From Candidatus Methylomirabilis sp. (lineage in GTDB: Bacteria; Pseudomonadota; Gammaproteobacteria; Acidiferrobacterales; Sulfurifustaceae): DNA of 64,000 nucleotides. The DNA lies in the NCBI GenBank assembly GCA_035624495.1, contig DASPRK010000231.1, forward strand, positions 185-64,184, in the 5' to 3' direction. Each line of letters begins with the position of its first letter. Position 1 is the first letter of the stretch. Positions 22,255 to 60,411 of this stretch are shown piece after piece. The translations under genes were made by a program, and so were the position numbers. The notes beneath the pieces were generated by a model, which worked only from the letters and a program-made list of their open reading frames with translations, was not told where the DNA came from and searched no databases.

Positions 22255-22952
22255 GGATCGTCGGGTCGCCTGATTGGCGGATTATGCGGGGCCGGATGCG
22301 CGCGGTCCAATCGGCGCGGCGTGCGCGCGCAACCCGTGTCCGGCCCGCCGTGACAGAGGAGAGTCTTTGGAGAATCGGCGGCGCGCTTGCAAAATTCATC
22401 CGTGCACGCGGCAGGCGCCATCGTCTGGGCGCGGATCGCGTTGTTATTTCTTGACTTTTCGCCCGGGCTCCATAAAACTCTTCGATGATTTGCGTCCCCG
22501 GAGGTTCAAAGGATTGGCCAGCACGGGTTTGCAAACCGCGATATCCACGGCGCCGCCGTCGAGGCGGGGAGGTGGCGCATTCACCACCGCGTAGCCGATC
22601 CGACGATGCCGTCGGCCCGGCTTCGGGGATGGCGTCTTTTCCGCCCCGGCGCCGCCGTTATCTTCCCCTCTAATAAATCAGTTACCAATCGCGCGTTCGC
22701 GCGCGTCCCGGCTCGTCCCGTTGTGGGCGATAGGCAAGACGCTCGCGCCGGGCGAATGCGCCGTGGCAAGCAATGGCGCGGCGGAAAATCAGCAGGAGAT
22801 GCTTCGCTTCATCGAATAATACATCCAACCGAATCGCGTTTCGTTGCCGTCCGACCGCGATCGTCGGACGCGACGCGGAACGCAAAACCAGGAAGGGGCG
22901 AATTACCGCCCCTTTTCATTTCTCTCGACCGAAATCCGGAGGTGTTTTTCAC

Positions 22953-24089
22953 ATGAAGATCATAGCGATTGCCAATCAGAAGGGTGGGTGCGGCAAGACC
23001 ACCACCGCGATCAATCTGGCCGCCTGTCTCGGGAAGAAGGAACGGCGCGTACTGCTGATCGACCTCGATCCCCAGGGCCACTCGTCGCTCGGTTTCGGGG
23101 TTTACGATGAACACGCGCGCGATTTGTACGACGTGTTCACTGGTGAAGTGAAACTCGAGGAGATCATCCTGCCGGGCGTCTTCCCCGGCGTGGACGTGGT
23201 ACCGGCGACCATGACGCTCGCGGCCGCGGAGCATCTGCCGGTGAGCCGCGACGAACGCGACCGGTTGCTGGAGTTGCATCTGAAACCGCTTCGCAAGCGC
23301 TACGACTACGCCGTCATTGACTGTCCGCCCTCGCTCGGTCTGCTGTCGTTCAACGCGCTTGCGGTATCGGACCTGGTATTGATCCCGATCGAGATGAGCC
23401 TGTTCGGTCTCAACGGCATCGAGCACATGTACGAAACCATCGCCCTGCTGCGCGAGCGCCATGAACGCGAGATTCCCATCCGCGTGCTTCCGACGCTGAT
23501 CGACAGCCGCACGCGACTGTGCCGGCAATTCCTGCACGAGGTGGCGGAGCGCTTCGCCGACGACGTCTCGCCGGTGATGGTGCAATTCACGGTGCGCCTG
23601 AAGGAAGCGGTGCGTCAGGGTAAGCCAATCGTTGCATACGATCCCAGTTCGGTCGCGGCGGTACAGTACGGCCGTCTGGCCGATGAAATCATTTCCTGCG
23701 TGCACGAAGGCGCCACCATCGCGGAGAATGGCCAGACCGAGGCACGCGTTACCAGCGTGAAACTTGCCTTCGATGACGCCCGCTCGGCGCTCGGCCGCCG
23801 GCGCGGCCAGCAGAAAGTGGTGCTGCATCTTTTCGGCTACGAGGGAAAGCGTGTTCAGCTCGCCGGCGATTTCAACGATTGGAAGCCGGATCAGGGCGTG
23901 CTCACCCGCACCGTTGACGGCGTGGTGGAAAAAACCGTGATGCTGATGCCGGGGACATACCAGTACCGTTACATTATCGATGACGTTTGGCAGGAGGATC
24001 CCTCGAATCCCGAAGTGGTGGAAAATTTCTCGGGCGGGTATAACTCGATCCTGCACGTCGTGGAGGAGCACGACGCCGTCAGCGTCTAG
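22953..24089 (+). CDS. ParA/Soj-family ATPase fused to a C-terminal CBM48 (AMPK-beta-like glycogen-binding) domain
   Basis: Deviant Walker A NQKGGCGKTTT, DLDPQG, IDCPP; C-terminal VQLAGDFNDW...PGTYQYRYIIDDVWQEDPSNP...GGYNSIL; RBS GGAGG. Confidence 0.92.
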   Translation: MKIIAIANQKGGCGKTTTAINLAACLGKKERRVLLIDLDPQGHSSLGFGVYDEHARDLYDVFTGEVKLEEIILPGVFPGVDVVPATMTLAAAEHLPVSRDERDRLLELHLKPLRKRYDYAVIDCPPSLGLLSFNALAVSDLVLIPIEMSLFGLNGIEHMYETIALLRERHEREIPIRVLPTLIDSRTRLCRQFLHEVAERFADDVSPVMVQFTVRLKEAVRQGKPIVAYDPSSVAAVQYGRLADEIISCVHEGATIAENGQTEARVTSVKLAFDDARSALGRRRGQQKVVLHLFGYEGKRVQLAGDFNDWKPDQGVLTRTVDGVVEKTVMLMPGTYQYRYIIDDVWQEDPSNPEVVENFSGGYNSILHVVEEHDAVSV

Positions 24090-24315: not shown

Positions 24316-24702
24316 ATGTACAAGCGAATCCTGATTGCGGTCGACGGCAGCGACAGCGCCGATCGCGCCTTGGAGGAAGCCGTGCGCCTGGCCAAAGCGG
24401 ACGCAGCGGCGCTGAAAATCGTGTTTGTCGACGGGGAGGATGAGATCAGCCGGCAGATCATGGAAGTGGCCGTGGCGAAGGCGCGCAACGCCGGACTGGT
24501 TCCGGAAAGCGGGCTGTTGGTCAAGCTTCCGACTGAGGGAATCAGCGACGTCATCTTGCAGGAAGCGGGGCGCTGGACCGCCGATCTTGTCGTGATCGGT
24601 ACCCATGGGCGCCGCGGAATCGCGCATGCGCTGGTCGGCAGCGTGGCGGAAGCAGTGATCCGCACCGCGACCATACCGGTGCTAGTCGTGCGACGGTCGT
24701 GA
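24316..24702 (+). CDS. Universal stress protein
   Basis: YKRILIAVDGS, DLVVIGTHGRRG...LVGSVAE.V. Confidence 0.93.
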   Translation: MYKRILIAVDGSDSADRALEEAVRLAKADAAALKIVFVDGEDEISRQIMEVAVAKARNAGLVPESGLLVKLPTEGISDVILQEAGRWTADLVVIGTHGRRGIAHALVGSVAEAVIRTATIPVLVVRRS

Positions 24703-24734: not shown

Positions 24735-25163
24735 TCAGATGAATTCTTTCCTGGCCCGGGCAAACGAATGTTTCAGGTCTTCGATGGCGCTATCCATGCC
24801 GGATTTCAGTTTTTTCCAGGCCTGGACATTGACCGCTTTCACGTCACCCAGCTTCGATTCAGTGGCATCCCATTTCTTGTCGAGCGCCTTGATATCGGCG
24901 TCGAGCTTGGCCTTGGCGTCGACGCGCGCCTCCCGCGCCTTGACGCCCAGCCGGTCGATGCCGACCCTCAGCTCATCGATCTCTTTTTGCGCCTCGTGGA
25001 CGTATTTGTCCCGTTCCTGTTCCGCGTAAGTCGCCGCGCTGTGCGTCGCCCGTGCCGTGTCGTGCGTCACGTCCTTCGCCGTGACATCGGCGTGCACATT
25101 TTTGCCGAAACCGGCAAGGGAGATCATCAACATCAGCGTCATTAAGAATATGAACCTAATCAT
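24735..25163 (-). CDS. Secreted helical hypothetical protein
   Basis: Signal peptide, amphipathic helices (AWKKLKSGMDSAIEDL); RBS GGAGG. Confidence 0.8.
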   Translation of the reverse strand: MIRFIFLMTLMLMISLAGFGKNVHADVTAKDVTHDTARATHSAATYAEQERDKYVHEAQKEIDELRVGIDRLGVKAREARVDAKAKLDADIKALDKKWDATESKLGDVKAVNVQAWKKLKSGMDSAIEDLKHSFARARKEFI

Positions 25164-25501: not shown

Positions 25502-26451
25502 ATGATCGCGCTTTCGGCATTGAACGTGCGTTACGGCATTCCCGGCCAGCTCACCTTCAAGGAAGGTTCCGGCGGGATGACCGTGGGCGAGGTAACGAGT
25601 ATGCATGCGGCCGCGGCGGTGACGCTGCAAGGCGCGCAGGTGATGATGTGGACGCCGCAGGGACAATCACCGGTGATCTGGCTCTCGCGTGCCGCCCGGT
25701 TCGCGCCCGGCAGGTCGATGCGCGGGCGGCGCGCCGGTATGCTGGCCGTGGTTCGGTCTGCATGCGACCGGTCCGGTCTTGCCCGCGCACGGTTTCGCCC
25801 GCACCGTGCCGTGGGAGGTGACCGAATCGCGCGCGCTTGCCGACGGCACCACCGAGATGGCGCTGGCACTGGTGGAGAACGAGCAGACGCGCGCCCAGTG
25901 GCCGCATCGTGCACGGCTTTCCCATCGCATCAGCGTCGGACACACGCTCAAGCTCGCGCTCACTGCGGTAAACACCGGCGATCACGATTTTGTCATCGGC
26001 GAGGCGCTGCACACCTATTTTGAAATCGGCGATATCGACGATATCCGCATCACCGGTCTGGAAGGCGCTGAATATCTCGACAAGGTCGGCGGGGGCAGCG
26101 CGCGACGACGTCAGGACGGGCCGGTGACCTTTGCGGCCGAGACTGACCGGATTTATCTGAATACCGAATACCGAAGCCGAATGCGTCATCGAAGACGCGC
26201 GCTTGAAGCGGCGCATCCGTATCGCCAAGAGCGGTAGTCGCTCGACCGTGGTGTGGAACCCGTGGGCGGCGAAGGCGGACAGGATGGGCGACCTGGGGCC
26301 GGACGGCTGGCGCCGGATGGTGTGCGTGGAAAGCGCCAACGCGGCCGACGACGTCGTGACGGTCAAAGCCGGTGCCACCCACACGCTGGCGGTGGAGTAT
26401 CGTGTCGAAACGCCGTATCGGCGACGAAGGATGGTGCCTTGTTATTTATGA
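25502..26451 (+). pseudogene. D-hexose-6-phosphate mutarotase (YeaD / aldose 1-epimerase family), two frameshifts
   Basis: Motifs QGAQV, RGG.PVCWPWFG, HGFAR, ALHTYF, STVVWNPW and MVCVE span three frames. There is one extra G at 25724-26 and a 7-bp tandem duplication AATACCG at 26160-26173. Confidence 0.9.
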
Positions 26452-27746: not shown

Positions 27747-27911
27747 ATTCTTGAAGTCTAGCTCAGAGCGGCTAATCCACGTAAAAAAGCGTAATTTCGA
27801 GGTTTGCGTATACCCCAGCCTTACGGCGCCGCCGCGCCCGAGCCTGTGCTACGATTTTCTGGACCATCTGGATTCGGACGATCGGGTTCTTTTTTCACGG
27901 ATAACCAGCGC

Positions 27912-28211
27912 ATGTCATCCGACGACAAGAACAAAGATGAACGTCGCCAGCACCAGCGTCGTGTCATATCGCTCGAGGGCGAATTGCTCGAACCGTCGAT
28001 CGGGGTGGTGAAAATTTACACCATCGACCTGAGCGAGGGTGGTGCATTTGTGGCGCTGGCAGCCGATAAATGTCCGCCAGTTGGCACCACGATCACGCTA
28101 CGCCTGCCCGGGGTCCTGTGGGGCGAGCAGATGTCGACCGTCTCCGGACGCGTCGTTCGGGTTACCGATCAAGGAATGGCAGTGCAGTTTTTCGATTTCG
28201 ACGTCGGCTAG
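27912..28211 (+). CDS. Stand-alone PilZ-domain protein
   Basis: RRQHQR (RxxxR), DLSEGG (DxSxxG), RVVR...GMAVQF. Confidence 0.93.
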   Translation: MSSDDKNKDERRQHQRRVISLEGELLEPSIGVVKIYTIDLSEGGAFVALAADKCPPVGTTITLRLPGVLWGEQMSTVSGRVVRVTDQGMAVQFFDFDVG

Positions 28212-36428: not shown

Positions 36429-36795
36429 GGAGTTGGCCAGACAGCCGCTGCCCGAGCGCCTTGTGCGCCTGGGCGGAGGAAAGTCCGGGCTCCACAGGGC
36501 AGGGTGCCAGGTAACGCCTGGGCGGCGTGAGCCGATGGAAAGCGCCACAGAAAATACACCGCCTACGTCTCACTGAGTTATTTCAGCGGGACCGGCAAGG
36601 GTGAAATGGTGCGGTAAGAGCGCACCGCGCGGGTGGCAACATCCGCGGCACGGCAAGCCCCACCCGGAGTAAGGCCGAATAGGGGAACCATGATGCGGCC
36701 CGCATCGTTCCCGGGTTGGCCGCTTGAGGCGCGTGGCGACGTGCGTCCCAGAGGAATGGCTGTCCACGACAGAACCCGGCTTATCGGCCGACTCC
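36429..36795 (+). ncRNA. rnpB: RNase P RNA, bacterial class A
   Basis: GAGGAAAGTCCGGGCTCC, GGGTGAAATGGTGCGGTAAGAGCGCACC, ACAGAACCCGGCTTA; complementary ends GGAGTTGGCC / GGCCGACTCC followed by a T-tract. Confidence 0.98.
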
Positions 36796-37028
36796 TTTTT
36801 TATTTTGACTTTAAGAGAAGATTTTAATTTTATGTTTTTGTTACTGATTTGCGTCTAATTTTGGCTGACAAACGGTGCTGCATTCAGCTCTTATTGCAAC
36901 GCGTTTCTGATTCAGGCTTCGTTGTTTCAGCTTCCCTTCCTAACTTGCTGTCCTGCAAAGAAGAAATTTTGCGGCCTAGCCAGTTTTTTCTTGACACCCC
37001 TCAGTACCGCTATCTATAGTGTCATTAA

Positions 37029-37543: not shown

Positions 37544-38500
37544 GTGAATGAACACCGCCACGTCCCGGTGCTGCTGGAGGAGGCATTGCAAGCACTGCGG
37601 CTGAAAACAGACGGCGTATATGTCGATGCCACGTATGGTCGGGGCGGGCACGCGCGGGAAATCTTGAATCGGTTGGAGGAGCGGGGACGGTTGCTGTTGT
37701 TCGATCGGGACCCGCAAGCCTGTGAGGACGCGCGTCGCCACTACGGCGCGGACGCACGCGTGCACGTGATCGCGGGATCGTTCTCCCATCTCGGGCGCAG
37801 CGTCGAGCAGCTCGGTCTCACCGGCAAGGTGGATGGATTGCTTTTCGACCTCGGCGTGTCATCGCCGCAGCTCGACGACGCCAGCCGCGGTTTCAGTTTT
37901 CGCCTCGAAGGCCCGCTCGACATGCGCATGGATCCGCGTACCGGTGAGTCCGCGGCCGAATGGATCAACCGCGCCGCGGAAGATGATATCGCGCGCGTCG
38001 TTCGCGAGTACGGCGAGGAACGTTTCGCCAAGCGCATCGCCCGCGCCATCGTACGCGAACGTTCGATCGAGCCGATCTCGACGACGCAACGGCTGGCAGA
38101 GATCGTCAAACGCGCCGTACCGAAGCGCGAGGCCCGCAAGGATCCGGCGACGCGCACCTTCCAGGCCATCCGTATTCACGTCAACCGCGAACTCGACGAG
38201 CTCAAAGACGCACTGCCGCAGGCCGTGCAGGCGTTGGCGCGGGGTGGGCGGCTGGTCGTGATCAGTTTTCATTCGCTCGAAGATCGCATCGTGAAGCATT
38301 TCATGCGCGCCGAAGCAAAGGGCGAAGAGCCGCCGCCTGACTTGCCGGTGCGGCATGAAGCGTTCCGCGGCCGTCTCAAAATAATCGGCAAGGCGATTCA
38401 GGCGAGCGAAGCCGAAGCACGGCGCAATCCGCGCGCCCGTAGTGCCGTGCTGCGTGTTGCCGAGCGCACAGTCGGCAAAGGGGCGACGAGCCATGTCTAA
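37544..38500 (+). CDS. rsmH: 16S rRNA m4C1402 methyltransferase
   Basis: HVPVLL, DATYGRGGH, DLGVSSPQLD, FHSLEDRIVK, NPRARSA. Confidence 0.98.
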   Translation: MNEHRHVPVLLEEALQALRLKTDGVYVDATYGRGGHAREILNRLEERGRLLLFDRDPQACEDARRHYGADARVHVIAGSFSHLGRSVEQLGLTGKVDGLLFDLGVSSPQLDDASRGFSFRLEGPLDMRMDPRTGESAAEWINRAAEDDIARVVREYGEERFAKRIARAIVRERSIEPISTTQRLAEIVKRAVPKREARKDPATRTFQAIRIHVNRELDELKDALPQAVQALARGGRLVVISFHSLEDRIVKHFMRAEAKGEEPPPDLPVRHEAFRGRLKIIGKAIQASEAEARRNPRARSAVLRVAERTVGKGATSHV

Positions 38501-38771
38501 ACGCCTGATCGTTTTGCTGGCCGCGGTCATGGTGACATCGATCGCGGTGATACAGGCCCGGCAGGAAAGCCGTCAGTTGTTCGCCGAATTGCAGACCGGC
38601 CAGGCCGAACGCGACGCGTTCAATATTGAATGGGGCAAGCTGCTGCTCGAGGAAGCGACGTGGTCGCAGCACCGTCGTGTCGAAGCCATGGCGCGCGGCC
38701 GCCTGAACATGAGTACGCCCGACGCTGCGCACATCCGCGTGGTGCGGCTCACCGCAGAGGCCAAGCCATGA
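38493..38771 (+). CDS. ftsL: Cell division protein FtsL
   Basis: TM plus coiled coil, EWGKLLLEEATWS; position between rsmH and ftsI. Confidence 0.95.
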   Translation: MSKRLIVLLAAVMVTSIAVIQARQESRQLFAELQTGQAERDAFNIEWGKLLLEEATWSQHRRVEAMARGRLNMSTPDAAHIRVVRLTAEAKP

Positions 38772-40483
38772 GTCGCCGCGCCCAGATGCGCCATACGGTG
38801 CGCAACGCGATCGTGTTGCTGTTTTACCTGGGCGGCATGGTGTCGCTGGCGGTGCGTGCCATGTATCTGCAGGTGTTCAACGCCGATTTCCTTCAGGAGC
38901 AGGGCAACGCCCGGCATTCGCGCCTGGTCAAGGACAACTCGCATCGCGGCATGATCCTCGACCGCAACGGCGCTCCACTCGCCGTCAGCACGCCGGTGGA
39001 TTCGGTGTGGGCGAACCCGGAGATGCTGGCGCAACAGCGTCGCAGCTGGCCGCGACTCGCGGCGCTGCTCGACATCAGTCCGAGCGAGATCGCGCAACTG
39101 GAAAGGAAATTTAACGATCGCGAATTCATGTATCTCAAGCGGCACGTCCCGCCGGCGCTGGCCGAGCGCGTGATGGCGCAAAAGGTGCCCGGGGTGGCGC
39201 TGCAGCGTGAATATCGACGCTATTATCCGCTCGGGCCAGTGGCCGGGCACGTAATCGGATTCACGAACGTCGACGACCAGGGCCAGGAGGGCGCGGAGCT
39301 ATCCTTCGATTCTTGGCTGCGCGCCGTGCCGGGCGCCAAGCGCGTGCTGCGCGACCTGCAGGGCAACGCCGTGGAGGCGGCCGAAAGCGTGGTGTTGCCC
39401 AGACCCGGCAAAGATTTGGTGCTTTCGATCGACCGCCGCATCCAGTATCTGGCCTACCGCGAGCTAAAGAACGCGGTGCAGGAACACGGCGCGCACGCGG
39501 GCAGCGCCGTGGTGATCGACGCGCATACCGGCGAGGTGCTGGCACTGGTGAACGAACCGGACTTCAATCCGAACAACCGCGCTGGTTTGCACAGCCGCGT
39601 CTTCCGCAATCGCGCGGTGACGGATCTGTTCGAACCGGGGTCGACCGTCAAGCCCTTCACCATCGCTTGCGCGCTCGAAAGCGGCAAGTACAAACCCGGC
39701 ACGGTGATCGACACCACGCCCGGAATGCTCCAGATCGGCGACCGCACCATTCGCGACGTGCATAACTACGGGGTGTTGACAGTCGCCGGCGTGATCGAGA
39801 AATCGAGCAATGTCGGTGCCTCCAAGATCGCGCTCTCGCTCAACAAGAACACCATGTGGCAAATGCTGCGCAGCGTCGGCTTCGGTCAACCGACCGGCGC
39901 GCAGCTGCCGGGCGAGATCGACGGTCTGCTCAACCCGTCGTCAAGCTGGGTTCCGGTGGAACAGGCGACCATCTCCTACGGTTACGGCATTTCCGTGACC
40001 CCGCTGCAGCTCGCGCGCGCGTACGTGGCGCTGGCCAACGATGGCGAAGAACTGCCGCTTACTTTAGTGGCGGTGGACGCGCCGCCCCCGGGTCAGCGCG
40101 TGATGTCGGCGGATACCGCGCATCGCATCCGGTCGATGCTTGAGCTCGCGGTGAGCGACGCCGGCACCGGCGTCCGCGCCCAGGTCGCGGATTATCGCGT
40201 GGCCGGCAAGACCGGCACCGTGCGCAAGCTGACCGCGAGTGGATATTCGGAAGAGAAATATGTCGCCTGGTTTGCCGGTTTCGCGCCGGCGTCTTCGCCC
40301 AGGCTCGTGATGGTTGTCGCGGTCGATGAACCCACGCGTGGCGGTTATTTCGGCGGGGAGATTGCGGCACCGGTGTTCGGGCGGGTGATGGCCGGCGCGC
40401 TGCGCTTGCTCGACGTCCCGCCCGATGCTCCGCGTCTGGGGCCGCGCGTCCTGACGGTGAAAAACGAACGGGTGGCAGAATGA
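38768..40483 (+). CDS. ftsI: Penicillin-binding protein 3
   Basis: RG.ILDRNG, EPGSTVKP (SxxK), SSN, KTGT. Confidence 0.98.
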   Translation: MSRRAQMRHTVRNAIVLLFYLGGMVSLAVRAMYLQVFNADFLQEQGNARHSRLVKDNSHRGMILDRNGAPLAVSTPVDSVWANPEMLAQQRRSWPRLAALLDISPSEIAQLERKFNDREFMYLKRHVPPALAERVMAQKVPGVALQREYRRYYPLGPVAGHVIGFTNVDDQGQEGAELSFDSWLRAVPGAKRVLRDLQGNAVEAAESVVLPRPGKDLVLSIDRRIQYLAYRELKNAVQEHGAHAGSAVVIDAHTGEVLALVNEPDFNPNNRAGLHSRVFRNRAVTDLFEPGSTVKPFTIACALESGKYKPGTVIDTTPGMLQIGDRTIRDVHNYGVLTVAGVIEKSSNVGASKIALSLNKNTMWQMLRSVGFGQPTGAQLPGEIDGLLNPSSSWVPVEQATISYGYGISVTPLQLARAYVALANDGEELPLTLVAVDAPPPGQRVMSADTAHRIRSMLELAVSDAGTGVRAQVADYRVAGKTGTVRKLTASGYSEEKYVAWFAGFAPASSPRLVMVVAVDEPTRGGYFGGEIAAPVFGRVMAGALRLLDVPPDAPRLGPRVLTVKNERVAE

Positions 40484-41955
40484 CTGCGTCCACCGAAACC
40501 CGACGCCTGCGCGAACTCCTCGACGGCATCGTGCGCGTGCCCGGTCTCGCAAACCGCGAGATCGGCGGTCTGCAGACCGACAGCCGCCGCGTACGACGCG
40601 GCGATCTTTTTCTGGCGTTGCCGGGCATGGTCGCGGACGGTCGCGACTACATCGGCGATGCCGTAGCCGGCGGCGCGGCGGCGGTCGTATATGAGTCCAA
40701 TGACGGTTATGCCCTGGACGGTGCGCCGGTGCCGGCGCTCGCCGTCGCCGACCTGCGCCGCAAAATCGGTTTCATCGCCGATCGTTTCTACGGATCGCCA
40801 TCACGGCGCCTGGTCGTCGTCGGCGTCACCGGCACGAACGGCAAAACCACTTGCACGCAGTTGCTGGCCCAGGCGCTGGACCGGCCGCCGCGGCGGTGCG
40901 CCGTGATTGGCACTCTGGGGTCCGGTTATCCCGGCGCGCTGAATGCCTCGCTGCACACCACGCCGGATGCGGTGACGGTGCAGCGCCTGATGGCGGAATT
41001 TCTCGTCCACGGCGCGTCGCACGTTTCGATGGAGGTGTCCTCACATGCGCTGGAGCAAGGACGGGTGAACGGCATTGCGTTTCACGTCGCGGTGTTCACC
41101 AATCTCACGCGTGATCACCTCGATTATCACGGCGACATGGAATCCTACGGCGCGGCCAAGGCCGGGTTGTTCGCGATGGAAGGTCTGCAGTACGCCGTGA
41201 TCAATCACGACGACTCCTTCGGGCTCGGCCTGCTGGCCGACATCGACGCGCGGATCAAGACGCTGAGCTACGGGATCGAAGGTGGCGACGTGCGAGCACG
41301 CGAGCTGCGGCTGTCGCCGGAAGGCATACATCTGCTCATCGCCACGCCGGCCGGTGATACCGAGCTGCGCAGTCCTCTGATCGGACGCTTCAATGCCTAC
41401 AACCTGCTCGCCGTACTGGCGACATTGCTGGCCTTGGGTGTGGAGCTGAAAGAGGCGGTGGCGCGGCTCTCGCGGGCGTACGCACCGCCAGGACGCGCCG
41501 AGCGTTTCGGCGGCGTGAAAGGTCTGCCGCTGGTCGTGATCGATTACGCCCATACCCCCGACGCGCTGGAAAAAATCCTGCTGGCATTGCGCGAGCACGC
41601 GCACGGGACGCTCTGGTGCGTTTTCGGCTGCGGAGGCGACCGCGATCGCGGCAAGCGCCCGGTCATGGGCGAGATCGCCGAACGGCTCGCGGACGCGGTA
41701 GTGCTGACCGACGACAACCCGCGGCACGAGTCCGGCGATACCATCATCCGCGACATCGTCGGCGGCATGACCGCGACGCCCAGGATCGTCCGCGATCGCC
41801 GCTGCGCCATCGCCGAGGCTGTCGGCGAAGCCGGCGAAGGTGACATCGTGCTGATCGCCGGCAAGGGGCATGAGGATTATCAGCAGGTGGGAGATACGCG
41901 CCTGCCGTACAGCGACCGCGATGCCGTGCGCGAGATATTGGGGGTGGCAGCATGA
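40480..41955 (+). CDS. murE: UDP-MurNAc-dipeptide--DAP ligase
   Basis: GVTGTNGKTT, MEVSSH, DYAHTPD, DDNPR, IAGKGHE. Confidence 0.98.
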   Translation: MTASTETRRLRELLDGIVRVPGLANREIGGLQTDSRRVRRGDLFLALPGMVADGRDYIGDAVAGGAAAVVYESNDGYALDGAPVPALAVADLRRKIGFIADRFYGSPSRRLVVVGVTGTNGKTTCTQLLAQALDRPPRRCAVIGTLGSGYPGALNASLHTTPDAVTVQRLMAEFLVHGASHVSMEVSSHALEQGRVNGIAFHVAVFTNLTRDHLDYHGDMESYGAAKAGLFAMEGLQYAVINHDDSFGLGLLADIDARIKTLSYGIEGGDVRARELRLSPEGIHLLIATPAGDTELRSPLIGRFNAYNLLAVLATLLALGVELKEAVARLSRAYAPPGRAERFGGVKGLPLVVIDYAHTPDALEKILLALREHAHGTLWCVFGCGGDRDRGKRPVMGEIAERLADAVVLTDDNPRHESGDTIIRDIVGGMTATPRIVRDRRCAIAEAVGEAGEGDIVLIAGKGHEDYQQVGDTRLPYSDRDAVREILGVAA

Positions 41956-42199
41956 GCCACGAAGCACTGGCCCCTTTGGGGATGCGAGTGCGGGCCGGGA
42001 GGAGGGGCCGCGCGAAGCGGCGATGCAACCGTCCGCGAGTCGCTCGTGGCCGCCAGAATGGGGCTGCCTTAGCGTGGCAAGAGTCTTGTCGGGTGGTGCG
42101 TGGTCTGAGAACGGCACGCTGGTGGCGACCGGCGAAGGCTGCCGGACGCCGGCAGTTCGGCGCGGCGCGTCTGCACGATTTTTCAGAGGCGCCAGCGTG
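41952..42199 (+). repeat. dcw junction insert A (murE-murF); open 82-codon ORF 41952-42200
   Basis: Shares GCGACCGGCGAA (42125-36) and flanking blocks with inserts B and C. The ORF overlaps the murE stop (ATGA) and the murF start (TGATG). Confidence 0.75.
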
Positions 42200-43564
42200 A
42201 TGTCTCTCGCCATTCTCGCCGATGTCCTCAAATCGCCGCTCGTCGGGCGGGACGCGGTCTTCACCGGCATCGGCCACGACACGCGCACGTTGCAGGCCGG
42301 TGATCTTTACGTGGCGATCAAGGGCGAACATTTCGACGGGCACCATTTCCTCGCCGAGGCGATCGCCGCCGGTGCCGCCGGCGCGCTGCTCGCGCGAGAC
42401 ATGGAAACGCCGTTGCCGTACGTGCGGGTGCCGAACACCCGCCTGGCGCTCGGCAACGTCGCCGCCTTCTGGCGCAATCAGTTCCGGGATATTCCCGTGA
42501 TCGCGGTGACCGGCAGCAACGGCAAGACCACGGTCAAGGAAATGATCGGCGCAATTATGGGCGAGACCGGACCCGGTTGTGTCACGCGCGGTAACCTCAA
42601 CAACGATATCGGCGTGCCGCTCACGCTTGCGCGCCTGCGTGCGGAACATCGCTATGCCGTGATCGAGATGGGGATGAACCATCCCGGCGAAATCGAATAT
42701 CTGTCGCGCCTGACGCATCCAACCATTGCGGTCATTACCAACGCCGGCGAGGCGCATCTCGCGGGCGTGGGCACGGTCGAGGACGTGGCGCGCGCCAAGG
42801 GCGAAATCTTCATTGGATTGGCGCGTGACGGCACCGCCGTGCTCAACGCCGACGACGCGCATTTCGCCCTATGGAGGACGCTGACCGGGCTGAAGAGGAG
42901 CATCACCTTCGGCCTCGACAACCCGGCGGACGTGAGCGCCGAGTACCGGCTCACCGACGTCGGCAGCGCCATTCATCTCAAAACCATCACACATGGGGAA
43001 ATCGACATGCGTGTACCACTGCTGGGTCGACACAACGTCATGAATACGCTCGCCGCCACCACCGCCGCGATCGCCGCCGGCGCTACGCTCGCGCAGGTGA
43101 AAACCGGCCTCGAGAAGCTCATGGCCGTTTCCGGCCGTCTCGAGGTGAAGCCGGGAATCAGCGGCGCGCGCGTCATTGACGACACCTACAACGCCAATCC
43201 TGCCTCGCTCGCGGCCGGCATCCAGGTGCTCAAGGAGTTCAGCGGCGAACGCGTGCTGGTGATGGGCGACATGGCCGAACTGGGCGCCGCCGCCGCCGAC
43301 ATTCATTACCGCGTCGGCGAACTCGCGAATCGCGTCGGTATCCAGCGCCTGTTCGCCATCGGCGAGTTGGCCCGCGTGGCGGTCGCCGGGTTCGGCAAGG
43401 GCGCGCGGCACTTCGAAAGTCCGGAGGCGCTGATCGAGGCGCTGCAGGACTGCATGCACGCCGATATGACGGTGCTGGTCAAGGGTTCGCGTGTGATGCG
43501 CATGGAGCGCATCGTGGCCGGCATCACCAAATCGACCGTGGCCGAAAACGGGAGGACCCGTTAA
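42200..43564 (+). CDS. murF: UDP-MurNAc-tripeptide--D-Ala-D-Ala ligase
   Basis: AVTGSNGKTTVKE, NNDIGVP, EMGMNH.GEI, DDTYNANP, GDMAELG, VKGSR. Confidence 0.98.
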   Translation: MSLAILADVLKSPLVGRDAVFTGIGHDTRTLQAGDLYVAIKGEHFDGHHFLAEAIAAGAAGALLARDMETPLPYVRVPNTRLALGNVAAFWRNQFRDIPVIAVTGSNGKTTVKEMIGAIMGETGPGCVTRGNLNNDIGVPLTLARLRAEHRYAVIEMGMNHPGEIEYLSRLTHPTIAVITNAGEAHLAGVGTVEDVARAKGEIFIGLARDGTAVLNADDAHFALWRTLTGLKRSITFGLDNPADVSAEYRLTDVGSAIHLKTITHGEIDMRVPLLGRHNVMNTLAATTAAIAAGATLAQVKTGLEKLMAVSGRLEVKPGISGARVIDDTYNANPASLAAGIQVLKEFSGERVLVMGDMAELGAAAADIHYRVGELANRVGIQRLFAIGELARVAVAGFGKGARHFESPEALIEALQDCMHADMTVLVKGSRVMRMERIVAGITKSTVAENGRTR

Positions 43565-44647
43565 GTGCTCTTTTATCTCTTTGAGACGTTGACGCGTGAT
43601 TTCTCGTTCTTCAACGTCTTTCGCTATCTCACGCTGCGCGGGATTCTCGGCGTGTTGACGGCGCTTGGCATCAGCTTTTGGATCGGCCCCGCGGTGATCC
43701 GCCGTCTCGGCTACCGCCAGCTCGGCCAGACCGTGCGCAAGGACGGGCCGCAAAGCCACCTGTCCAAGGCCGGAACGCCGACCATGGGCGGGGCCATGAT
43801 TCTCATCGCGGTCTTCATCGCCACGCTATTGTGGGCGGATCTGTCCAACCGTTTCGTGTGGACGGTGCTGTTCACCACCGCGGCGTTCGGGGCGATCGGC
43901 TGGGTCGACGATTACAAGAAGATCATCAATAAGGATCCGCGCGGCATCGGCGCCAAAGCCAAGTTCTTCTGGCAGACGGTCGCGGGGTTGGTGGCAGCGC
44001 TGTTCCTTTATTACACCGCCAAGACCCCGGCCGAGACCTCGCTGATCGTGCCGGTTTTCAAGAACATCATCATTCCCCTCGGTCCGGCGTTCATCCTGCT
44101 CGCTTATTTCGTGATCGTGGGCAGCAGCAACGCCGTGAACCTCACCGACGGACTCGACGGGCTTGCGATCATGCCGACGGTGATGGTCGCGGGCGCGCTC
44201 GGCATCTTCGCCTACGTCATGGGTCACGTGAAATTTTCCGCCTACCTCGGCTTTCCCTACGTCGCCGGCGCGGGTGAGGTGCTGATTTTCTGCGGCGCCA
44301 TCGTCGGCGCCGGCCTCGGGTTCCTGTGGTTCAACACCTACCCCGCCGTGGTGTTCATGGGTGACATCGGCGCGCTCGCGCTCGGCGCGGCGCTCGGGAC
44401 GGTGGCGGTCGCGGTGCGCCAGGAGATCGTGTTGTTCGTGATGGGCGGCATCTTCGTCATGGAAACGGTGTCGGTGATGCTGCAGGTGGCCTCGTTCAAG
44501 CTCACCGGCAAGCGCATCTTCCGAATGGCGCCACTGCATCACCATTTCGAACTTAAAGGCTGGCCGGAACCGCGGGTGATCGTGCGCTTCTGGATCATCT
44601 CGCTGATCCTGGTGCTGATCGGACTGGCAACATTGAAGATTCGGTGA
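43565..44647 (+). CDS. mraY: Phospho-N-acetylmuramoyl-pentapeptide transferase
   Basis: [33 protein letters not shown]. Confidence 0.98.
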
Positions 44648-44888
44648 AAATGAACATTTTTAAAATGAAATTGACCGCTAGCGCGCCAGGATCGCCAGGG
44701 CGAGCGGGAGGCAGACGAAGACTCTTGACTTGTCTTCGTCCCGGCGAGCGCTCGCACACGGATGTGCGGACTGGTGTTTATGGAAGTCTGTGCGTTGCGC
44801 CAGGGATGGCTGCACATAGGCGTCCTGGCGCTTCAGAAGTAGATTCATATTGTTCGAGGCTCCAAGACGAAAGGTGAAGGCAGTTGCA
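44644..44888 (+). repeat. dcw junction insert D (mraY-murD), self-complementary; ORF 44644-44877
   Basis: GCGCCAGGA ... TCCTGGCGC inverted pair and an internal GACGAAGAC / GTCTTCGTC hairpin. The ORF starts on the mraY stop (GTGA). Confidence 0.55.
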
Positions 44889-46229
44889 ATGACAAAACCG
44901 GAGACAAAACGCGCGCTGGTGGTGGGCCTCGGGCTCACGGGACTTTCGTGCGTGCGTCATCTCGCCGGGCGCGGCTATGCCGTCACGGTCGTGGACACCC
45001 GCGCGCAGCCGCCCAAGCTCGACGAGCTCGAGCGCGAATTCCCGCGCGTTCCGGTGCACCTCGGCGGGCTGCCGGCGGCGTTGTTCGACGATCCGGGGCT
45101 GCTCGTGGTGAGTCCCGGCGTATCGGTGAAGGAATCGCCGATCGCGCGTGCCATCGAACGGGGCGCGCAGGCGATCGGCGACATCGAGCTGTTCGCGCGT
45201 GAGGCGACCGCGCCGGTCATCGCGGTCACGGGCGCCAACGGCAAGAGCACGGTGACGGCATTGACCGGCGAAATGTGCCGGCAGGGGGGGCTGCGGACTG
45301 CGGTCGGCGGCAATATCGGCGTGCCGGCGCTCGAACTACTCGCCGGTTCCGAGCCGGAGGTGTACGTACTCGAACTGTCGAGCTTCCAGCTTGAGACGAC
45401 CTGGAGCCTCAACGCACGCGCGGCCGCAGTGCTCAACATCACGCCCGATCACATGGATCGCTACCGCAACATCGACGGCTATGCTGCGGCCAAGGCGCGT
45501 ATTTTCCGCGGCAACGGCACGATGGTGCTGAACGCCGACGATCACCTGGTGATGCGCATGCGCGACTCGGGGCGACGCACGGTCAGCTTTAGTCTGAGCC
45601 GGCCGCTGGAGGCACAGGATTACGGTCTGGATGAAATCGTCGGCGAAACCTGGCTGGTGCGCGGCAAACAGCCATTGATGCGGGCGCGCGAGGTGTCGCT
45701 CGCCGGCCGTCACAACCTGGCGAACGTGCTGGCAGCAATGGCGCTCGCTGAAGCCGCGGGCGTGAGCGTCGACGCCGCCCGTGCCGCGGTGCGCGGCTTC
45801 AAGGGCCTCAAGCATCGCACCGAGCTGGTGGCCGAGCGCGACAACGTGCGTTGGTACGACGACTCGAAAGGCACGAACGTCGGCGCCACGGTCGCGGCGC
45901 TGAACGGCATGACCGCGCCGGTGATCCTGATCGCAGGCGGCGACGGCAAGGGACAGGATTTCAGCGAGCTCCGCCCGGCGTGCGTGCTGCACGCACGCGC
46001 CGTGGTGCTCATCGGGCGCGATGCGCCGCTCATTGAAGCCGCGCTCGGCGGCTCGGTCCCGGTGCATCGCGCGCCGGACATGCACAACGCGGTGCGCCGC
46101 GCCGCCGGTTTGGCGCAACCGGGCGACGTGGTGTTGCTGTCGCCGGCATGCGCGAGCTTCGACATGTTCCGCAACTACGAGCATCGCGCTGAAGTCTTCC
46201 GCGCCGCGGTGCAGGAGGTAGTGGCATGA
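44889..46229 (+). CDS. murD: UDP-MurNAc-L-Ala--D-Glu ligase
   Basis: VTGANGKSTVT, ELSSFQL, DHMDRY, DSKGTNV, LSPACAS.DMF. Confidence 0.98.
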   Translation: MTKPETKRALVVGLGLTGLSCVRHLAGRGYAVTVVDTRAQPPKLDELEREFPRVPVHLGGLPAALFDDPGLLVVSPGVSVKESPIARAIERGAQAIGDIELFAREATAPVIAVTGANGKSTVTALTGEMCRQGGLRTAVGGNIGVPALELLAGSEPEVYVLELSSFQLETTWSLNARAAAVLNITPDHMDRYRNIDGYAAAKARIFRGNGTMVLNADDHLVMRMRDSGRRTVSFSLSRPLEAQDYGLDEIVGETWLVRGKQPLMRAREVSLAGRHNLANVLAAMALAEAAGVSVDAARAAVRGFKGLKHRTELVAERDNVRWYDDSKGTNVGATVAALNGMTAPVILIAGGDGKGQDFSELRPACVLHARAVVLIGRDAPLIEAALGGSVPVHRAPDMHNAVRRAAGLAQPGDVVLLSPACASFDMFRNYEHRAEVFRAAVQEVVA

Positions 46230-46506
46230 GCCGCGGAGGCCGCTTTGGACATTCCATGCAGGTACCTCGCGTGGAGCGTGGGGGTGTGAGCGCGAGCAGG
46301 GAGCAGGCTCCACCGGCGAAGAAGCGTGTGGAGGCGACCGTCGCAAGTCGCGCGCGGCCACCGGAGAGAATTTTGTATTTTCCGGCAACACTTCGACGGT
46401 CTGGCACAAAATTGCACCAGGGCACGCCGGTAGCGACCGGCGAATGGCCACAGGCCACCAGTGGTTTGGCGTGCGGAACTTGTTCGACCGTACAGAGGTG
46501 GCTCAC
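46226..46506 (+). repeat. dcw junction insert B (murD-ftsW); open 94-codon ORF 46226-46510
   Basis: GCGACCGGCGAA at 46433-44; ATGA overlaps with both the murD stop and the ftsW start. Confidence 0.75.
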
Positions 46507-47670
46507 ATGAGCGCCGTGCTGACCGCGGGCTCGACGCGCGCCGCCGGCCGCGCGCGGCCGGCGTGGGATCCCTGGTTGCTCGGCAGCACCGTGGCGCTGC
46601 TTGCGCTCGGTGTGATCATGGTTTATTCGGCCTCGGTGGCATACGCCCAACGCGAGATGCACAACGACGCCTATTTCCTCATCCGGCACGCGATCTCGAC
46701 GGGAGTCGGGCTGGTCCTGATGGTGTTCGTGACACGCACGCGCGTGCGCTGGTGGGAGGCGGCCGGGCCGTATCTGCTTCTGATCGGTATCGCCTCGCTG
46801 TTCGTGGTGCTGGTGCCGGGCATCAGCGCGCACGTCAACGGCAGCTCGCGCTGGATCAAGCTCGGTATCTTCAATCTGCAGCCGTCCGAATTCATGAAGC
46901 TCTTCATGGTGGTGTACGTGGCGGGCTATCTGGTGCGCAAACAGGAGGAACTCCGGAATTTCACTCAGGGCATCGTGATGGTCAGCCTTGTGGTGGCGGC
47001 GATCGGCGTCCTGCTGATCCTCGAACCGGACATGGGCACGCTGGTCGTGATCACCGTGACGGTTTTCACCATGCTTTTTCTCGGCGGCGTGCGCTTCTGG
47101 CACTTCATGGTGGTGCTCGGTGCAGGCGTGGGCAGCATGGTGTTGCTGACAATCATCTCGCCGTACCGCATGGCGCGCGCCACCAGCTTCCTCAATCCCT
47201 GGGCCGATCCGTTCAACACCGGTTTCCAGCTGGTGCAGGCGCTGATCGCTTTCGGGCGCGGCCAGTGGTTCGGCGTGGGCTTGGGCGCGAGCGTACAGAA
47301 GCTTTTCTATTTGCCGGCGGCGCACACCGATTTCGTGTTCGCGGTAATGGCCGAGGAGCTCGGTTTGATTTTCGTGCTCGGCGTGATGGTGCTGTTCGGC
47401 ATCATCATCGTGCGCGCCTTCGCCATTGCGCGCCAGGCTGAGGTGGCGGGCATGATCTACGGCGCGCGGCTGGCGCAGGGGCTCGGTCTGCTGATCGGCA
47501 GCCAGGCCATGATCAACATGGGCGTTAACATGGGTCTGCTGCCGACCAAGGGTTTGACGCTGCCGTTCCTGAGCTATGGCGGATCGAGCATGATCGTGAG
47601 CTGCATCGCCGTCGGCCTGCTGCTGTTGATCGGGCGCGAGGCGCGCGGCGGCAAGTGGGGAAAGGAATGA
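46507..47670 (+). CDS. ftsW: Peptidoglycan glycosyltransferase FtsW
   Basis: RWI...QPSEF.K, EPDMG, HTDFVFAV..EELG, LPFLSYGGSS. Confidence 0.98.
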   Translation: MSAVLTAGSTRAAGRARPAWDPWLLGSTVALLALGVIMVYSASVAYAQREMHNDAYFLIRHAISTGVGLVLMVFVTRTRVRWWEAAGPYLLLIGIASLFVVLVPGISAHVNGSSRWIKLGIFNLQPSEFMKLFMVVYVAGYLVRKQEELRNFTQGIVMVSLVVAAIGVLLILEPDMGTLVVITVTVFTMLFLGGVRFWHFMVVLGAGVGSMVLLTIISPYRMARATSFLNPWADPFNTGFQLVQALIAFGRGQWFGVGLGASVQKLFYLPAAHTDFVFAVMAEELGLIFVLGVMVLFGIIIVRAFAIARQAEVAGMIYGARLAQGLGLLIGSQAMINMGVNMGLLPTKGLTLPFLSYGGSSMIVSCIAVGLLLLIGREARGGKWGKE

Positions 47671-48740
47671 GCCGCGTGCTGATCATGGCGGGCGGCACCG
47701 GTGGGCACGTGTTCCCGGGCCTCGCCGTTGCGCGCCGTCTGATCGAAAAGCAAGTGCAGGTCGTCTGGCTCGGTACGCAACGCGGCCTCGAGGCACGCGC
47801 GGTCCCGGCCTCGGGATTGGCCATCGACATGGAATGGATCACGATCCAGGGCGTGCGGCGCAAGGGCTGGCTCGGCTGGTTGCTGCTGCCGTTCACGCTT
47901 CTTTATGCGATGGCGCAGGTGTTTCGCGTGCTGCGCCGCCGCAAACCCGACGCGGTGCTGTCGATGGGCGGTTTCGTCGCCGGGCCTGGCGGTCTTATGG
48001 CCTGGATCACGCACACGCCGTTGCTGATTCACGAGCAGAATGCGATCCCGGGCATGACCAATAAGTGGCTGGCACTGCTCGCGGACCAGGTCCTGAGCGG
48101 TTTCCCCGACGCCTTCGGCAGCCATATTGCAGCACGGCCGGTCGGTAATCCGGTGCGTGATGAGATCGCCCGGCTCTCCCCGCCGGAGCAGCGGTTTGCC
48201 GACCGTGGCGGCTGCCTGCATCTGCTTGTCGTCGGCGGCAGCCAGGGCGCGAAAATTTTCAATGACGTCATCCCGGACGCCGTGAAAACGCTGCCCGCCG
48301 GCAGTTGTCCGGAGGTTTGGCATCAGTGCGGACGCAATGCCGCGGCCCGGGTCACCATGGCCTATGACGGAGTTCCGGCCAAGGTCACCGAATTCATCGA
48401 CGACATGGCCGCTGCCTACGCCTGGGCGGACGTGATTCTCTGCCGCGCTGGCGCCATGACCATCGCCGAACTGGCGGCCTCGGGTTCGGCCGCGATTCTG
48501 GTTCCGTATCTGCAGGCAGTGGACGACCATCAGACAGCCAACGCGCGTTTTCTCGCCAGCCGCGACGCCGCCGTGCTGGTGCCGCAACCGGAGTTCACGG
48601 CGGCGCGGGTGCGCGAATTGCTGGAAGGTTTCAGCGCGAATCGCGAGCTCTTACTGAAGATGGCGCGCGCGGCGCGCCATCTCGCTGTCACCGACGCTGC
48701 CGAGACAGTAGCGAATCTCTGCCTGGAGGTAGCGACATGA
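47667..48740 (+). CDS. murG: Undecaprenyl-PP-MurNAc-pentapeptide GlcNAc transferase
   Basis: GGTGGHVFP, HEQN, GGSQGA, RAGA.T..E, HQ..NA. Confidence 0.98.
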   Translation: MSRVLIMAGGTGGHVFPGLAVARRLIEKQVQVVWLGTQRGLEARAVPASGLAIDMEWITIQGVRRKGWLGWLLLPFTLLYAMAQVFRVLRRRKPDAVLSMGGFVAGPGGLMAWITHTPLLIHEQNAIPGMTNKWLALLADQVLSGFPDAFGSHIAARPVGNPVRDEIARLSPPEQRFADRGGCLHLLVVGGSQGAKIFNDVIPDAVKTLPAGSCPEVWHQCGRNAAARVTMAYDGVPAKVTEFIDDMAAAYAWADVILCRAGAMTIAELAASGSAAILVPYLQAVDDHQTANARFLASRDAAVLVPQPEFTAARVRELLEGFSANRELLLKMARAARHLAVTDAAETVANLCLEVAT

Positions 48741-48845
48741 GCCGCGGAGCAGGGGCCACACGCAGTGGGGATGCGACCGGCGAATTGGCGCAGGACGCCG
48801 ACAAGATGGCGCATCGTGTTCCACGATCTTACGGAGGCGGCGCGC
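48737..48845 (+). repeat. dcw junction insert C (murG-murC); open 38-codon ORF 48737-48853
   Basis: GCGACCGGCGAA at 48773-84; first 13 nt identical to insert B. The [41 protein letters not shown] overlaps the murG stop and the murC start. Confidence 0.75.
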
Positions 48846-52867: not shown

Positions 52868-52869
52868 CT

Positions 52870-54111: not shown

Positions 54112-54175
54112 GGTTGGGGAACGGGCAGACGGATCATTCGATTGGTTATTCAGGAAACCTACACTGGAGGCAAAC

Positions 54176-55312: not shown

Positions 55313-55702
55313 CACTCGGCGCCCGAAGCCAACGCCCTGTCTGCCATGGGCGCAGATAGCCGCAATGAAACCTGCGTCCTTGGGCGATGCCGCCGCCGTT
55401 TGCAAAAGCGCTGCGGAACGGAATCCGACGGCTAGACGCGAGTTTCGCATACCAGGAGGGCCGTTTATCGGGGCGGTTGCCACGGATAACCACGTCCGAT
55501 CGGAAATTTGGCTGGACAGGGCCGCAAATTTGTCCTTAAATAACGGAAAGGGATTGATTTTCCGGATTTTAGCCCTGTGAGCTGAGGTTAAATCAAGCAT
55601 GCGGGGCGCACGCCTGTAACAGAGAATTAACCACGTATTTCTCCTGTCCCAGTGGGGATAGAGCTTTGTTGTGTGGTAAAGACAAGGACAAATTAAAATT
55701 TG

Positions 55703-57708: not shown

Positions 57709-60411
<2,703 letters not shown>

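Follow-up and report, generated by a model that had tools for sequence, protein, structure and literature searches.

What might a bacterial cell do with a ParA-type ATPase that carries a glycogen-binding module at its C-terminus? The question is raised by a gene in a stretch of 64,000 nucleotides from Candidatus Methylomirabilis sp. (assembly GCA_035624495.1, contig DASPRK010000231.1, positions 185 to 64,184 of the forward strand), which is called the window below. The gene encodes a fusion of a Soj/ParA-type ATPase domain with an AMPK-beta-type CBM48. On the basis of sequence comparison and predicted structure, the fusion protein may be an ATP-switched tether that links the nucleoid to glycogen and has its cargo adaptor built in; the probability of this reading is put at roughly 45%. 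The gene and its parts are located as follows.

22953-24089, forward strand: ParA-CBM48 fusion gene, 378 amino acids plus stop (Pfam, homologue lengths, independent assemblies)
22953-23702, forward strand: Soj/ParA-type ATPase domain, residues 1-250 (Pfam, PDB sequence alignments, AlphaFold2 and Foldseek, clade signature)
22980-23003, forward strand: Walker A motif K10GGC13GK15TT, within the ATPase domain
22989-22991, forward strand: clade-specific Cys13, in the P-loop
23067-23081, forward strand: D39-P-Q-G-H43, within the ATPase domain
23079-23081, forward strand: clade-specific His43, in switch I
23595-23597, forward strand: predicted DNA-binding arginine R215, aligned with R238 of the Myxococcus xanthus ParA
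23703-23807, forward strand: linker, residues 251-285, of low predicted confidence, with a predicted amphipathic basic helix at 262-282
23808-24068, forward strand: CBM48 or AMPK-beta-type glycogen-binding module, residues 286-372 (PF16561, phmmer, Foldseek, conservation)
23880-23882, 23967-23969, 23988-23990 and 24042-24044, forward strand: predicted sugar-contact residues W310, R339, W346 and N364 of the module, aligned with AMPK-beta1

The initial annotation, made from the sequence alone, described a ParA domain with an intact deviant Walker A motif, a linker of roughly 40 residues and an AMPK-beta-like CBM48. This architecture is recovered by Pfam, by the AlphaFold2 model and by Foldseek, with a linker closer to 35 residues. 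The fusion gene starts with the ATG at 22953, which is preceded 10 nt upstream by GGAGG at 22938-22942, and most homologues are exactly 378 residues long. A 438-residue open reading frame (ORF) starting at 22773 (22773-24089, forward strand) was rejected as an artefact of the ORF caller, because a conserved terminator and the Shine-Dalgarno sequence fall within its first 60 codons and because of the length of most homologues. The fusion ORF is free of insertions and deletions in contigs from four independent peat-metagenome assemblies or runs, and the fusion is therefore not an assembly artefact; one metagenome contig of 1137 nt is identical to the window over 22787-23923. Transcript support was not found: the locus occurs in peat and soil DNA metagenomes only, and the single RNA run contains 5% of the sampled words.

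Pfam assigns residues 1-174 of the protein to AAA_31 (E-value 9.7e-53) and residues 4-226 to CbiA. The AlphaFold2 model, built from 43 homologues, has a mean predicted local distance difference test (pLDDT) score of 82.7, and residues 1-251 form a confident alpha/beta domain. In Foldseek this domain matches the Soj structure 9A6N and the ParA structure 8RAY with template modelling (TM) scores of 0.92-0.93 (target-normalised), 41-42% identity and a root-mean-square deviation of 1.5-1.8 Å. The nearest solved relative by sequence is also 8RAY, the chromosomal ParA of Myxococcus xanthus (MxParA; E-value 8.6e-53). In the model the P-loop fold already begins at residue 2 with its first strand, so that the protein has no N-terminal signal sequence.

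The deviant Walker A motif KGGxxK[ST] is indeed intact, with its N-terminal signature lysine, and reads K10-G-G-C13-G-K15-T-T without variation in the 43 homologues. The catalytic aspartate D39, which corresponds to Soj D40 and to MxParA D60 (the position of the D60A substitution in 8RAY), and the Walker B D123 within VIDCPPS are both present and invariant. Other residues were placed with the residue map of M. xanthus ParA (PMC12462528) and a HMMER alignment to 8RAY, the chain offset being fixed by D60A. R215 aligns with MxParA R238, is invariant among the 43 close homologues and is R or K in most distant members; the R238E variant of MxParA shows no non-specific DNA binding (PMC12462528). The acidic residues D110 and E117 of MxParA, which lie in the H4/H6/H7 region linked to stimulation of the ATPase via ParB R13 (PMC12462528), align together with L192 to T, L and H in the fusion protein. 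The Walker-B-proximal loop of the ParB pocket (MxParA L150/G151/L152) is identical (SLGLL), and MxParA Y81/E82 align with Y/D. As judged from these alignments, the ParB pocket is partly retained and the acidic patch that mediates activation by ParB is lost. The protein thus looks competent for dimerisation, ATP hydrolysis and DNA binding, and it does not look tuned to the canonical N-terminal peptide of ParB.

Other members of the superfamily fit less well. The MinD model TIGR01968 gives 43.9 bits against a cut-off of 212.9, and the C-terminus is the CBM48 and not the amphipathic membrane-targeting helix of MinD. An assignment to anti-phage defence was rejected, as the PADLOC match is confined to the P-loop (E-value 9e-5).

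The fusion belongs to a distinct clade of ATPases. In a first homologue search the best 120 clusters at 90% identity are 59-100% identical to the query, and PF16561 is present in each except for one truncated entry. Their sources are Sulfuricaulis, further Gammaproteobacteria and Burkholderiales, and their only annotations are 'AAA family ATPase', 'Soj' or 'chromosome partitioning protein'. Species-representative genomes were scanned as well, and the full-length fusion was located in many further lineages, among them Thiogranum, Thiohalobacter, Pirellulales, Phycisphaerae, Sedimentisphaerales and Gemmatimonadota, as well as Omnitrophota, Eisenbacteria, Glassbacteria, Aegiribacteria and one deltaproteobacterium. 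The family is widespread in environmental bacteria of at least eight phyla. Signatures were tabulated for all 81 loci, and parB was looked for by tblastn with a ParB in loci for which 8 kb of flank was requested on each side (less at contig ends).

KGGCGK with DPQxH: 48 loci, CBM48 in 40, parB alongside in 0
KGGVGK with DPQxN: 33 loci, CBM48 in 0, parB alongside in 14

The signature KGGCGKT / DPQxH is thus present in 48/48 loci of the ParB-less clade and in 0/33 canonical loci, which have KGGVGKT / DPQGN. No mention of the KGGCGK motif was found in the searchable literature. The two clade-specific residues, Cys13 and His43, are invariant and unusual, and they might make the dimer interface responsive to redox state or to a metal. 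The observation in the initial annotation that parB is not adjacent holds, and it extends to the whole clade. Neither parB nor a second ParA homologue was found in the window by tblastn, and origin-marker genes were not seen near the fusion gene, with no scan of the window aimed at dnaA or gidA. The fusion family belongs to the Soj/ParA structural family and is not a ParABS partition ATPase.

Eight of the 48 clade loci have no CBM48. Two of them (L012, L019) are cut by a contig end, and three (L017, L018 and L041) are complete. The proteins of L017 (2536-3348) and L018 (8001-8807) have 268-270 residues and come from Chromatiales and Thioalkalispiraceae, and that of L041 (8001-8990), from a Desulfobacterales metagenome-assembled genome, has 329 residues and an acidic tail. 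From these sequences the ATPase clade is judged older or broader than the fusion.

The ATPase is connected to the glycogen-binding module by a linker, within which residues 253-284 are of low confidence in the AlphaFold2 model. Since beta strands begin at residue 287, the linker is about 35 residues long. Its predicted helix has the consensus TAMxRAFEEARxRL in the close family, and both its sequence and its length differ from one phylum to another, the spacer ranging in the aligned loci from almost nothing to about 100 residues. Linker length is evidently free to vary. The members from Planctomycetota have long helix-rich linkers, and the 591-residue protein P0259 has a linker of about 280 residues between its ParA domain (1-226) and its CBM (507-581).

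The identity of the C-terminal module is supported by several comparisons. AMPK1_CBM (PF16561) matches residues 296-372 with an E-value of 2.9e-12 and 47.0 bits against a gathering threshold of 26.8; the sister model PF02922 (CBM_48) gives 17.8 bits, below its threshold of 22.4. By phmmer, residues 296-370 align with structures of the AMPK beta1 and beta2 CBMs (E-value 2.5e-8). Residues 287-369 form a confident all-beta domain in the full-length model, with pLDDT of 81-90, and a model of the CBM alone, of moderate quality (pLDDT 66.7), retrieves with Foldseek only AMPK-beta CBMs (TM score about 0.70, target-normalised), the SEX4 glucan phosphatase and branching enzymes.

The sugar platform is conserved as well. 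In AMPK-beta1 the contacts to cyclodextrin in structure 1Z0M are made by W100, K126, W133 and N150, and L146 counts as a further sugar-contact residue. The first four align with W310, R339, W346 and N364 of the fusion protein, which are invariant in the 43 close homologues and appear as W, R/K, W and N/D in the cross-phylum alignment. These residues are kept from Gammaproteobacteria to Planctomycetota, Gemmatimonadota, Omnitrophota and others, in at least eight phyla. CBMs of this type abound in bacteria: an exhaustive HMMER search gives 6,231 representatives at E<=1e-3, many of them in tandem arrays; a word-indexed homologue search with the CBM alone had given only nine fragments, and the exhaustive search was used in its place. 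The sampled nearest relatives are tandem CBM48s on glycoside hydrolases, namely GH13 alpha-amylases and GH57 enzymes. Selection on the sugar platform, together with the kinship to modules of alpha-glucan enzymes, argues for real alpha-glucan binding by the CBM48 of the fusion protein.

How would such a protein work? From these features we infer that it may bind glycogen, bind DNA and position granules. It would be a cytoplasmic, ParB-independent ATPase of ParA type with its own cargo adaptor. In the ATP-bound state two ATPase domains would come together in a sandwich dimer and bind the nucleoid non-specifically, while each subunit would grip an alpha-glucan (glycogen) particle with the CBM48 at the end of its flexible linker. 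Many copies of the protein on one particle would hold it to chromosomal DNA by a multivalent tether, so that it would not be expelled to the nucleoid-free poles. Hydrolysis of ATP, which could be intrinsic, stimulated by DNA or brought about by another factor, would break single tethers and renew the links, and the particles would then travel over the nucleoid, remain dispersed and pass to both daughter cells. The outcome could be either a ratchet-like equidistant positioning or only a dynamic piggy-backing on the nucleoid. Expression appears to be gated by a long structured leader, in which a terminator and a sequestered ribosome-binding site would have to be overcome. E. coli, which has no such system, keeps its glycogen in the nucleoid-free space of the old pole, with the result that the two daughter cells inherit it asymmetrically and that nucleoid and division site are displaced from the centre (PMC12706056). 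This exclusion of glycogen to the old pole is the very problem that a nucleoid tether would solve.

The ATPase of the fusion protein is most similar to chromosomal ParA/Soj (8RAY, H. pylori Soj 6IUB and T. thermophilus Soj 2BEK), with which it shares the fold (TM scores of 0.89-0.93, target-normalised, at 35-42% identity), the deviant Walker A with its signature lysine, the catalytic aspartate, Walker B, the SLGLL loop and the DNA-binding arginine. Unlike these proteins, the fusion has no ParB/parS partner, it carries KGGCGKT and DPQxH in place of KGGVGKT and DPQGN, its counterparts of the ParB-responsive D110, E117 and L192 are replaced, and it has the added linker and CBM48.

A functional parallel is found in the orphan positioning systems, which are McdA/McdB (carboxysomes), ParC/ParP and PpfA/TlpT (chemoreceptor arrays) and PomXYZ. 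Like these, the fusion is a ParA-like ATPase without ParB, and its matrix for placing a large cytoplasmic body is presumed to be the nucleoid. McdA (6NOP, 6NON) is a structural relative of the fusion ATPase, with TM scores of 0.83-0.86 and 24-25% identity. In all of these systems a separate adaptor binds the cargo and stimulates the ATPase, whereas in the fusion the cargo module is in the same polypeptide and there is no conserved adaptor gene; their cargo is a protein assembly, whereas that of the fusion is presumed to be a polysaccharide. By analogy, the fusion protein probably works like McdA, ParC, PpfA and PomZ, though without the separate adjacent adaptor or activator that defines these systems.

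The CBM of the fusion has the same family (PF16561), beta-sandwich and Trp/Trp/Asn/basic platform as those of AMPK-beta (1Z0M, 4YEE, 4YEF), SEX4 (3NME/4PYH) and LSF1 (8J5D). Those proteins are a kinase scaffold or phosphatases, whereas the CBM described here is attached to a P-loop ATPase, and L146 of AMPK-beta1 is not kept. The same concept as that of the proposed role is known from PhaM of Ralstonia eutropha, which binds both the polyhydroxybutyrate (PHB) granule and DNA, tethers the granule to the nucleoid and so allows granules to be distributed with it. PhaM differs from the fusion in its unrelated sequence, in having no ATPase and in binding polyester granules via the PHB synthase. No description of the ParA-CBM48 architecture or of its clade was found in the literature, in agreement with the remark in the initial annotation that no characterised example was known.

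Several points weigh against the tether. The fused adaptor removes the separate ATPase stimulator that a classical diffusion-ratchet needs. Among four basic residues of H. pylori Soj that we take to be DNA contacts, only two have basic counterparts here (R191 and R215), the others being F212 and S232. The position of AMPK-beta L146 is occupied by a serine and is not conserved. The existence of clade members without a CBM implies that the ATPase can also serve another output. Genes of glycogen metabolism are not neighbours either: no such family is met repeatedly in the 116 ORFs that lie up to 4.5 kb from the fusion in 24 distant loci, and tblastn with E. coli GlgA/B/C/P/X finds no glg gene in the window. 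Over all loci the same search gives a single match, a glgC in L046, where about 7 kb separate it from the fusion. Taken together, the glg results mean that genomic linkage speaks neither for nor against the glycogen hypothesis.

Different uses of the same two domains have to be weighed. The CBM48 could be a regulatory input, as in AMPK-beta, through which binding to glycogen or sequestration on it would set the amount of free ParA-like dimer. The target of this dimer would lie elsewhere, for example in the organisation of the chromosome, the initiation of replication, the placement of the division site or a different cargo, and carbon storage would in this way be coupled to the cell cycle. The AMPK-beta type of the CBM, the CBM-less paralogues of the clade, the elaborate leader control of the gene and the MerR regulator directly upstream in some clades are all consistent with a sensor, as is the kinship of the ATPase to chromosomal Soj/ParA, a family with regulatory partners beyond ParB, of which the top structural match, the Soj-NrdR model 9a6n, is an example. 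It is nevertheless unlikely: no candidate target is encoded in the vicinity or shared between phyla, the acidic patch that responds to ParB is lost, and tethering is the simplest outcome of a DNA-binding dimer with two glycan-binding arms. In a related explanation, which is rather unlikely, the CBM sits on glycogen and the ATPase dimer, independently of the nucleoid, recruits or organises glycogen-metabolising enzymes or other proteins. Precedents for such a granule scaffold are BcsQ, which organises cellulose synthase, and FlhG, which organises flagellar proteins, both ParA/MinD members that act as assembly or localisation factors; CBP_BcsQ matches the fusion protein with 41.7 bits, and a marginally FleN/FlhG-like gene downstream of the fusion in one clade (gene X, described below) hints at a protein partner. 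The ATPase is, however, far nearer to Soj/ParA (183 bits) than to BcsQ/FlhG (at most 45 bits), the DNA-binding arginine is kept, and no enzyme partner is conserved nearby.

If the C-terminal beta-sandwich were a protein-interaction domain or bound another ligand, glycogen would not be the cargo. Modules with this fold have often been put to new uses, and the CBM of AMPK-beta also contacts the kinase domain; the serine at the L146 position and the PF02922 score below its cut-off point in the same direction. Both stacking tryptophans, the asparagine and the basic residue are nonetheless invariant across phyla, a pattern difficult to account for unless sugar binding is under selection, and with PF16561 well above its cut-off and the nearest relatives residing on alpha-glucan enzymes this explanation is decidedly unlikely. 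An ordinary chromosome-partition Soj with an incidental extra domain, for which the 'Soj' and 'chromosome partitioning protein' annotations of the sources and a chromosomal ParA as the best solved relative would speak, is very improbable and is contradicted by several tests. The NCBIfam equivalog ParA_partition gives 113.7 bits and does not reach its cut-off of 180, the Walker A and switch signature is peculiar to the clade, the acidic patch read by ParB R13 is lost, and parB is missing from the window and from beside every clade locus. In the complete genome of the cultured Sulfuricaulis limicola, moreover, the gene (BAV32841.1) lies about 506 kb into a 2.86-Mb record, between dsbA and an aldose-epimerase gene.

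The fusion gene is preceded by a conserved control region (22441-22952, forward strand). About 700 bp separate it from the upstream SprT gene, and within this stretch leader elements are common to eleven relatives.

22451-22478, forward strand: conserved sigma-70-like promoter, with -35 TTGACT at 22451-22456, a 16-nt spacer and -10 TAAAAC at 22473-22478
22486-22952, forward strand: 5' leader of about 470 nt, without a conserved ORF or a match in Rfam; candidate attenuator or riboswitch-like cis-regulatory RNA
22500-22519, forward strand: highly conserved block GGAGGTTCAAAGGATTGGCC in the 5' part of the leader, with a single occurrence in the window (0.01 expected by chance)
22850-22868, forward strand: small hairpin TCCGAC-CGCGATC-GTCGGA, with compensatory changes in 4/6 pairs (11 sequences) and present in the minimum free energy (MFE) and centroid folds
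22891-22925, forward strand: intrinsic terminator from the terminator scan, with its stem at 22891-22916 (GGAAGGGGCG / CGCCCCTTTT) followed by a T-rich tail
22938-22942, forward strand: Shine-Dalgarno sequence GGAGG, directly after the terminator and invariant in all relatives

The promoter block TTATTTCTTGAC(A/T)TTTC...CATAAAC is invariant or nearly so in the 11 aligned relatives and is also present in S. limicola. The promoter consensus scan did not report 22451-22478, because its -10 ends in C. A transcription start near 22486 is implied by the position of the predicted promoter. The leader has no Rfam family at gathering thresholds, nor any at E<=1. In nine related loci its 5' block is present as a single copy, which lies about 350-450 nt ahead of the fusion gene; hairpins are predicted in the block, with almost no covariation. 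The middle section of the leader is variable between relatives. A 26-codon leader ORF (22514-22594, forward strand; GGAGG, 9 nt, TTG) was considered and rejected. Its stop falls at the same aligned position in 7/11 relatives, and an eighth has an in-frame 9-nt deletion; variability by codon position is 20/24/26, with no periodicity, and three relatives read on. By this pattern the ORF is probably non-coding.

The 3' part of the leader has a conserved secondary structure. In the terminator stem 100% of the cells of the alignment are paired, two pairs show compensatory changes (GGGGCG/CGCCCC versus GGAGC/GCTCC), and the stem is kept in S. limicola. The Shine-Dalgarno sequence is predicted to pair with 22832-22837 (the AAUCGC region), and the resulting outer helix, which encloses the hairpin and the terminator, pairs in 94.5% of cells with one-sided changes only and is recovered in the MFE and centroid folds of the single sequence. 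For the whole 3' structure in the 11-sequence alignment, 92.9% of cells pair, as compared to 46-53% with slid partners, and seven pairs are compensatory, as compared to one to three in the slid controls; the observed values were matched by 0/500 shuffles. There is no room for a promoter between the T-run of the terminator and the Shine-Dalgarno sequence, and transcription of the fusion gene would therefore have to pass through the terminator. Its expression would most likely proceed by regulated read-through, and the leader is a candidate for a new cis-regulatory RNA of the fusion family in the Sulfuricaulis-like clade.

The leader also touches the annotation of S. limicola, in which BAV32841.1 (AP014879.1; L081, 10001-11248) has been given a start for 415 residues that lies inside the conserved leader, upstream of the terminator and the Shine-Dalgarno sequence. 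This start is doubtful because the same leader elements occur in S. limicola; it is most likely wrong, and the true start would be an internal ATG that yields a protein of about 378 residues.

No neighbouring gene is conserved across phyla, as judged by all-against-all clustering of flanking ORFs and by Pfam on 20 immediate neighbours and 116 further ORFs. Gene order is conserved within single clades. In the Sulfuricaulis-like clade it consists of SprT or DsbA, the leader, ParA-CBM48 and an aldose epimerase of the hexose-6-phosphate mutarotase type, and no adjacent adaptor gene is found. The epimerase is a weak link to glucose-phosphate metabolism. On the downstream side the window contains the following genes.

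24316-24702, forward strand: universal stress protein (Usp) gene, 227 nt downstream of the fusion gene
24735-25163, reverse strand: small coiled-coil gene, after the Usp gene
25502-26412, forward strand: aldose-epimerase gene, broken into three frames (25502-25726, 25707-26168 and 26167-26412)
27804-28211, forward strand: PilZ-domain gene

The Usp and coiled-coil genes are inserted between the fusion and the epimerase, an arrangement shared only with the closest relative, L001; in other Sulfuricaulis genomes the epimerase gene directly adjoins the fusion. Relatives of the epimerase are intact and have about 300 residues. The second frameshift of the window gene lies at a 7-nt tandem duplication (GAATACC x2, near 26153-26166), which is absent from one independent assembly (X1), and the gene is either a pseudogene or an instance of polymorphism within the population.

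The clade of Thiogranum, Thiohalobacter and other Gammaproteobacteria has a different arrangement, with two genes, X (217-270 residues) and Y (about 200 residues), directly downstream of the fusion. The X/Y region was located as follows.

L013, 9123-10562: X/Y region, downstream of the fusion gene
L014 and L037, 9110-10401: X/Y region, downstream of the fusion gene
L016, 9052-10098: X/Y region, downstream of the fusion gene
L027, 5422-6054: X/Y region, downstream of the fusion gene

Neither gene belongs to a Pfam family; X has a marginal FleN/FlhG-like stretch (E-value 0.005) and Y has no match. Y is also found downstream of the fusion in one Gemmatimonadota locus, and a MerR-family gene directly upstream of the fusion was confirmed in L013 and L014. 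Both X and Y are absent from the window. They are possible partner proteins. The earlier suggestion that the cargo adaptor is built in is plausible for the Sulfuricaulis-like clade and less clear elsewhere, because in some other clades X and Y are conserved downstream.

Further away, the window contains an RNase P RNA of bacterial class A (328.6 bits; 36429-36799, forward strand) just upstream of a cluster that resembles the division and cell wall (dcw) cluster in the order and lengths of its ORFs (37544-56614, forward strand). This dcw/ftsZ cluster is 30 kb from the fusion gene and is followed by a 900-residue ORF at 57709-60411. FtsZ (54176-55312) is its sole member confirmed by Pfam, and its 378 residues equal the length of the fusion protein by coincidence.

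A more far-reaching version of the tether may also be drawn, which as a whole is quite unlikely. The protein would be a self-contained positioner of a non-protein cargo in one polypeptide, Cys13 and His43, which lie at or near the dimer interface, would make formation of its sandwich dimer sensitive to redox state or metal, the leader would be a new carbon-sensing riboswitch-like element, and X and Y would extend the system in some phyla. If this were true, the tethering of glycogen would be switched at both the RNA and the protein level by the energy state of the cell.

The placement and inheritance of storage polysaccharides in bacteria are largely unexplored. If the tether is real, glycogen would for the first time have a proposed positioning factor dedicated to it. 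Among ParA-type systems it would be the first to carry a polysaccharide and the first to unite ATPase and cargo adaptor in one protein. The hypothesis is directly testable, since the fusion is present in S. limicola, which is cultured and fully sequenced (BAV32841.1). The fused adaptor bears on a live question, whether positioning on the nucleoid needs a separate stimulator of the ATPase or whether multivalent tethering may be enough.

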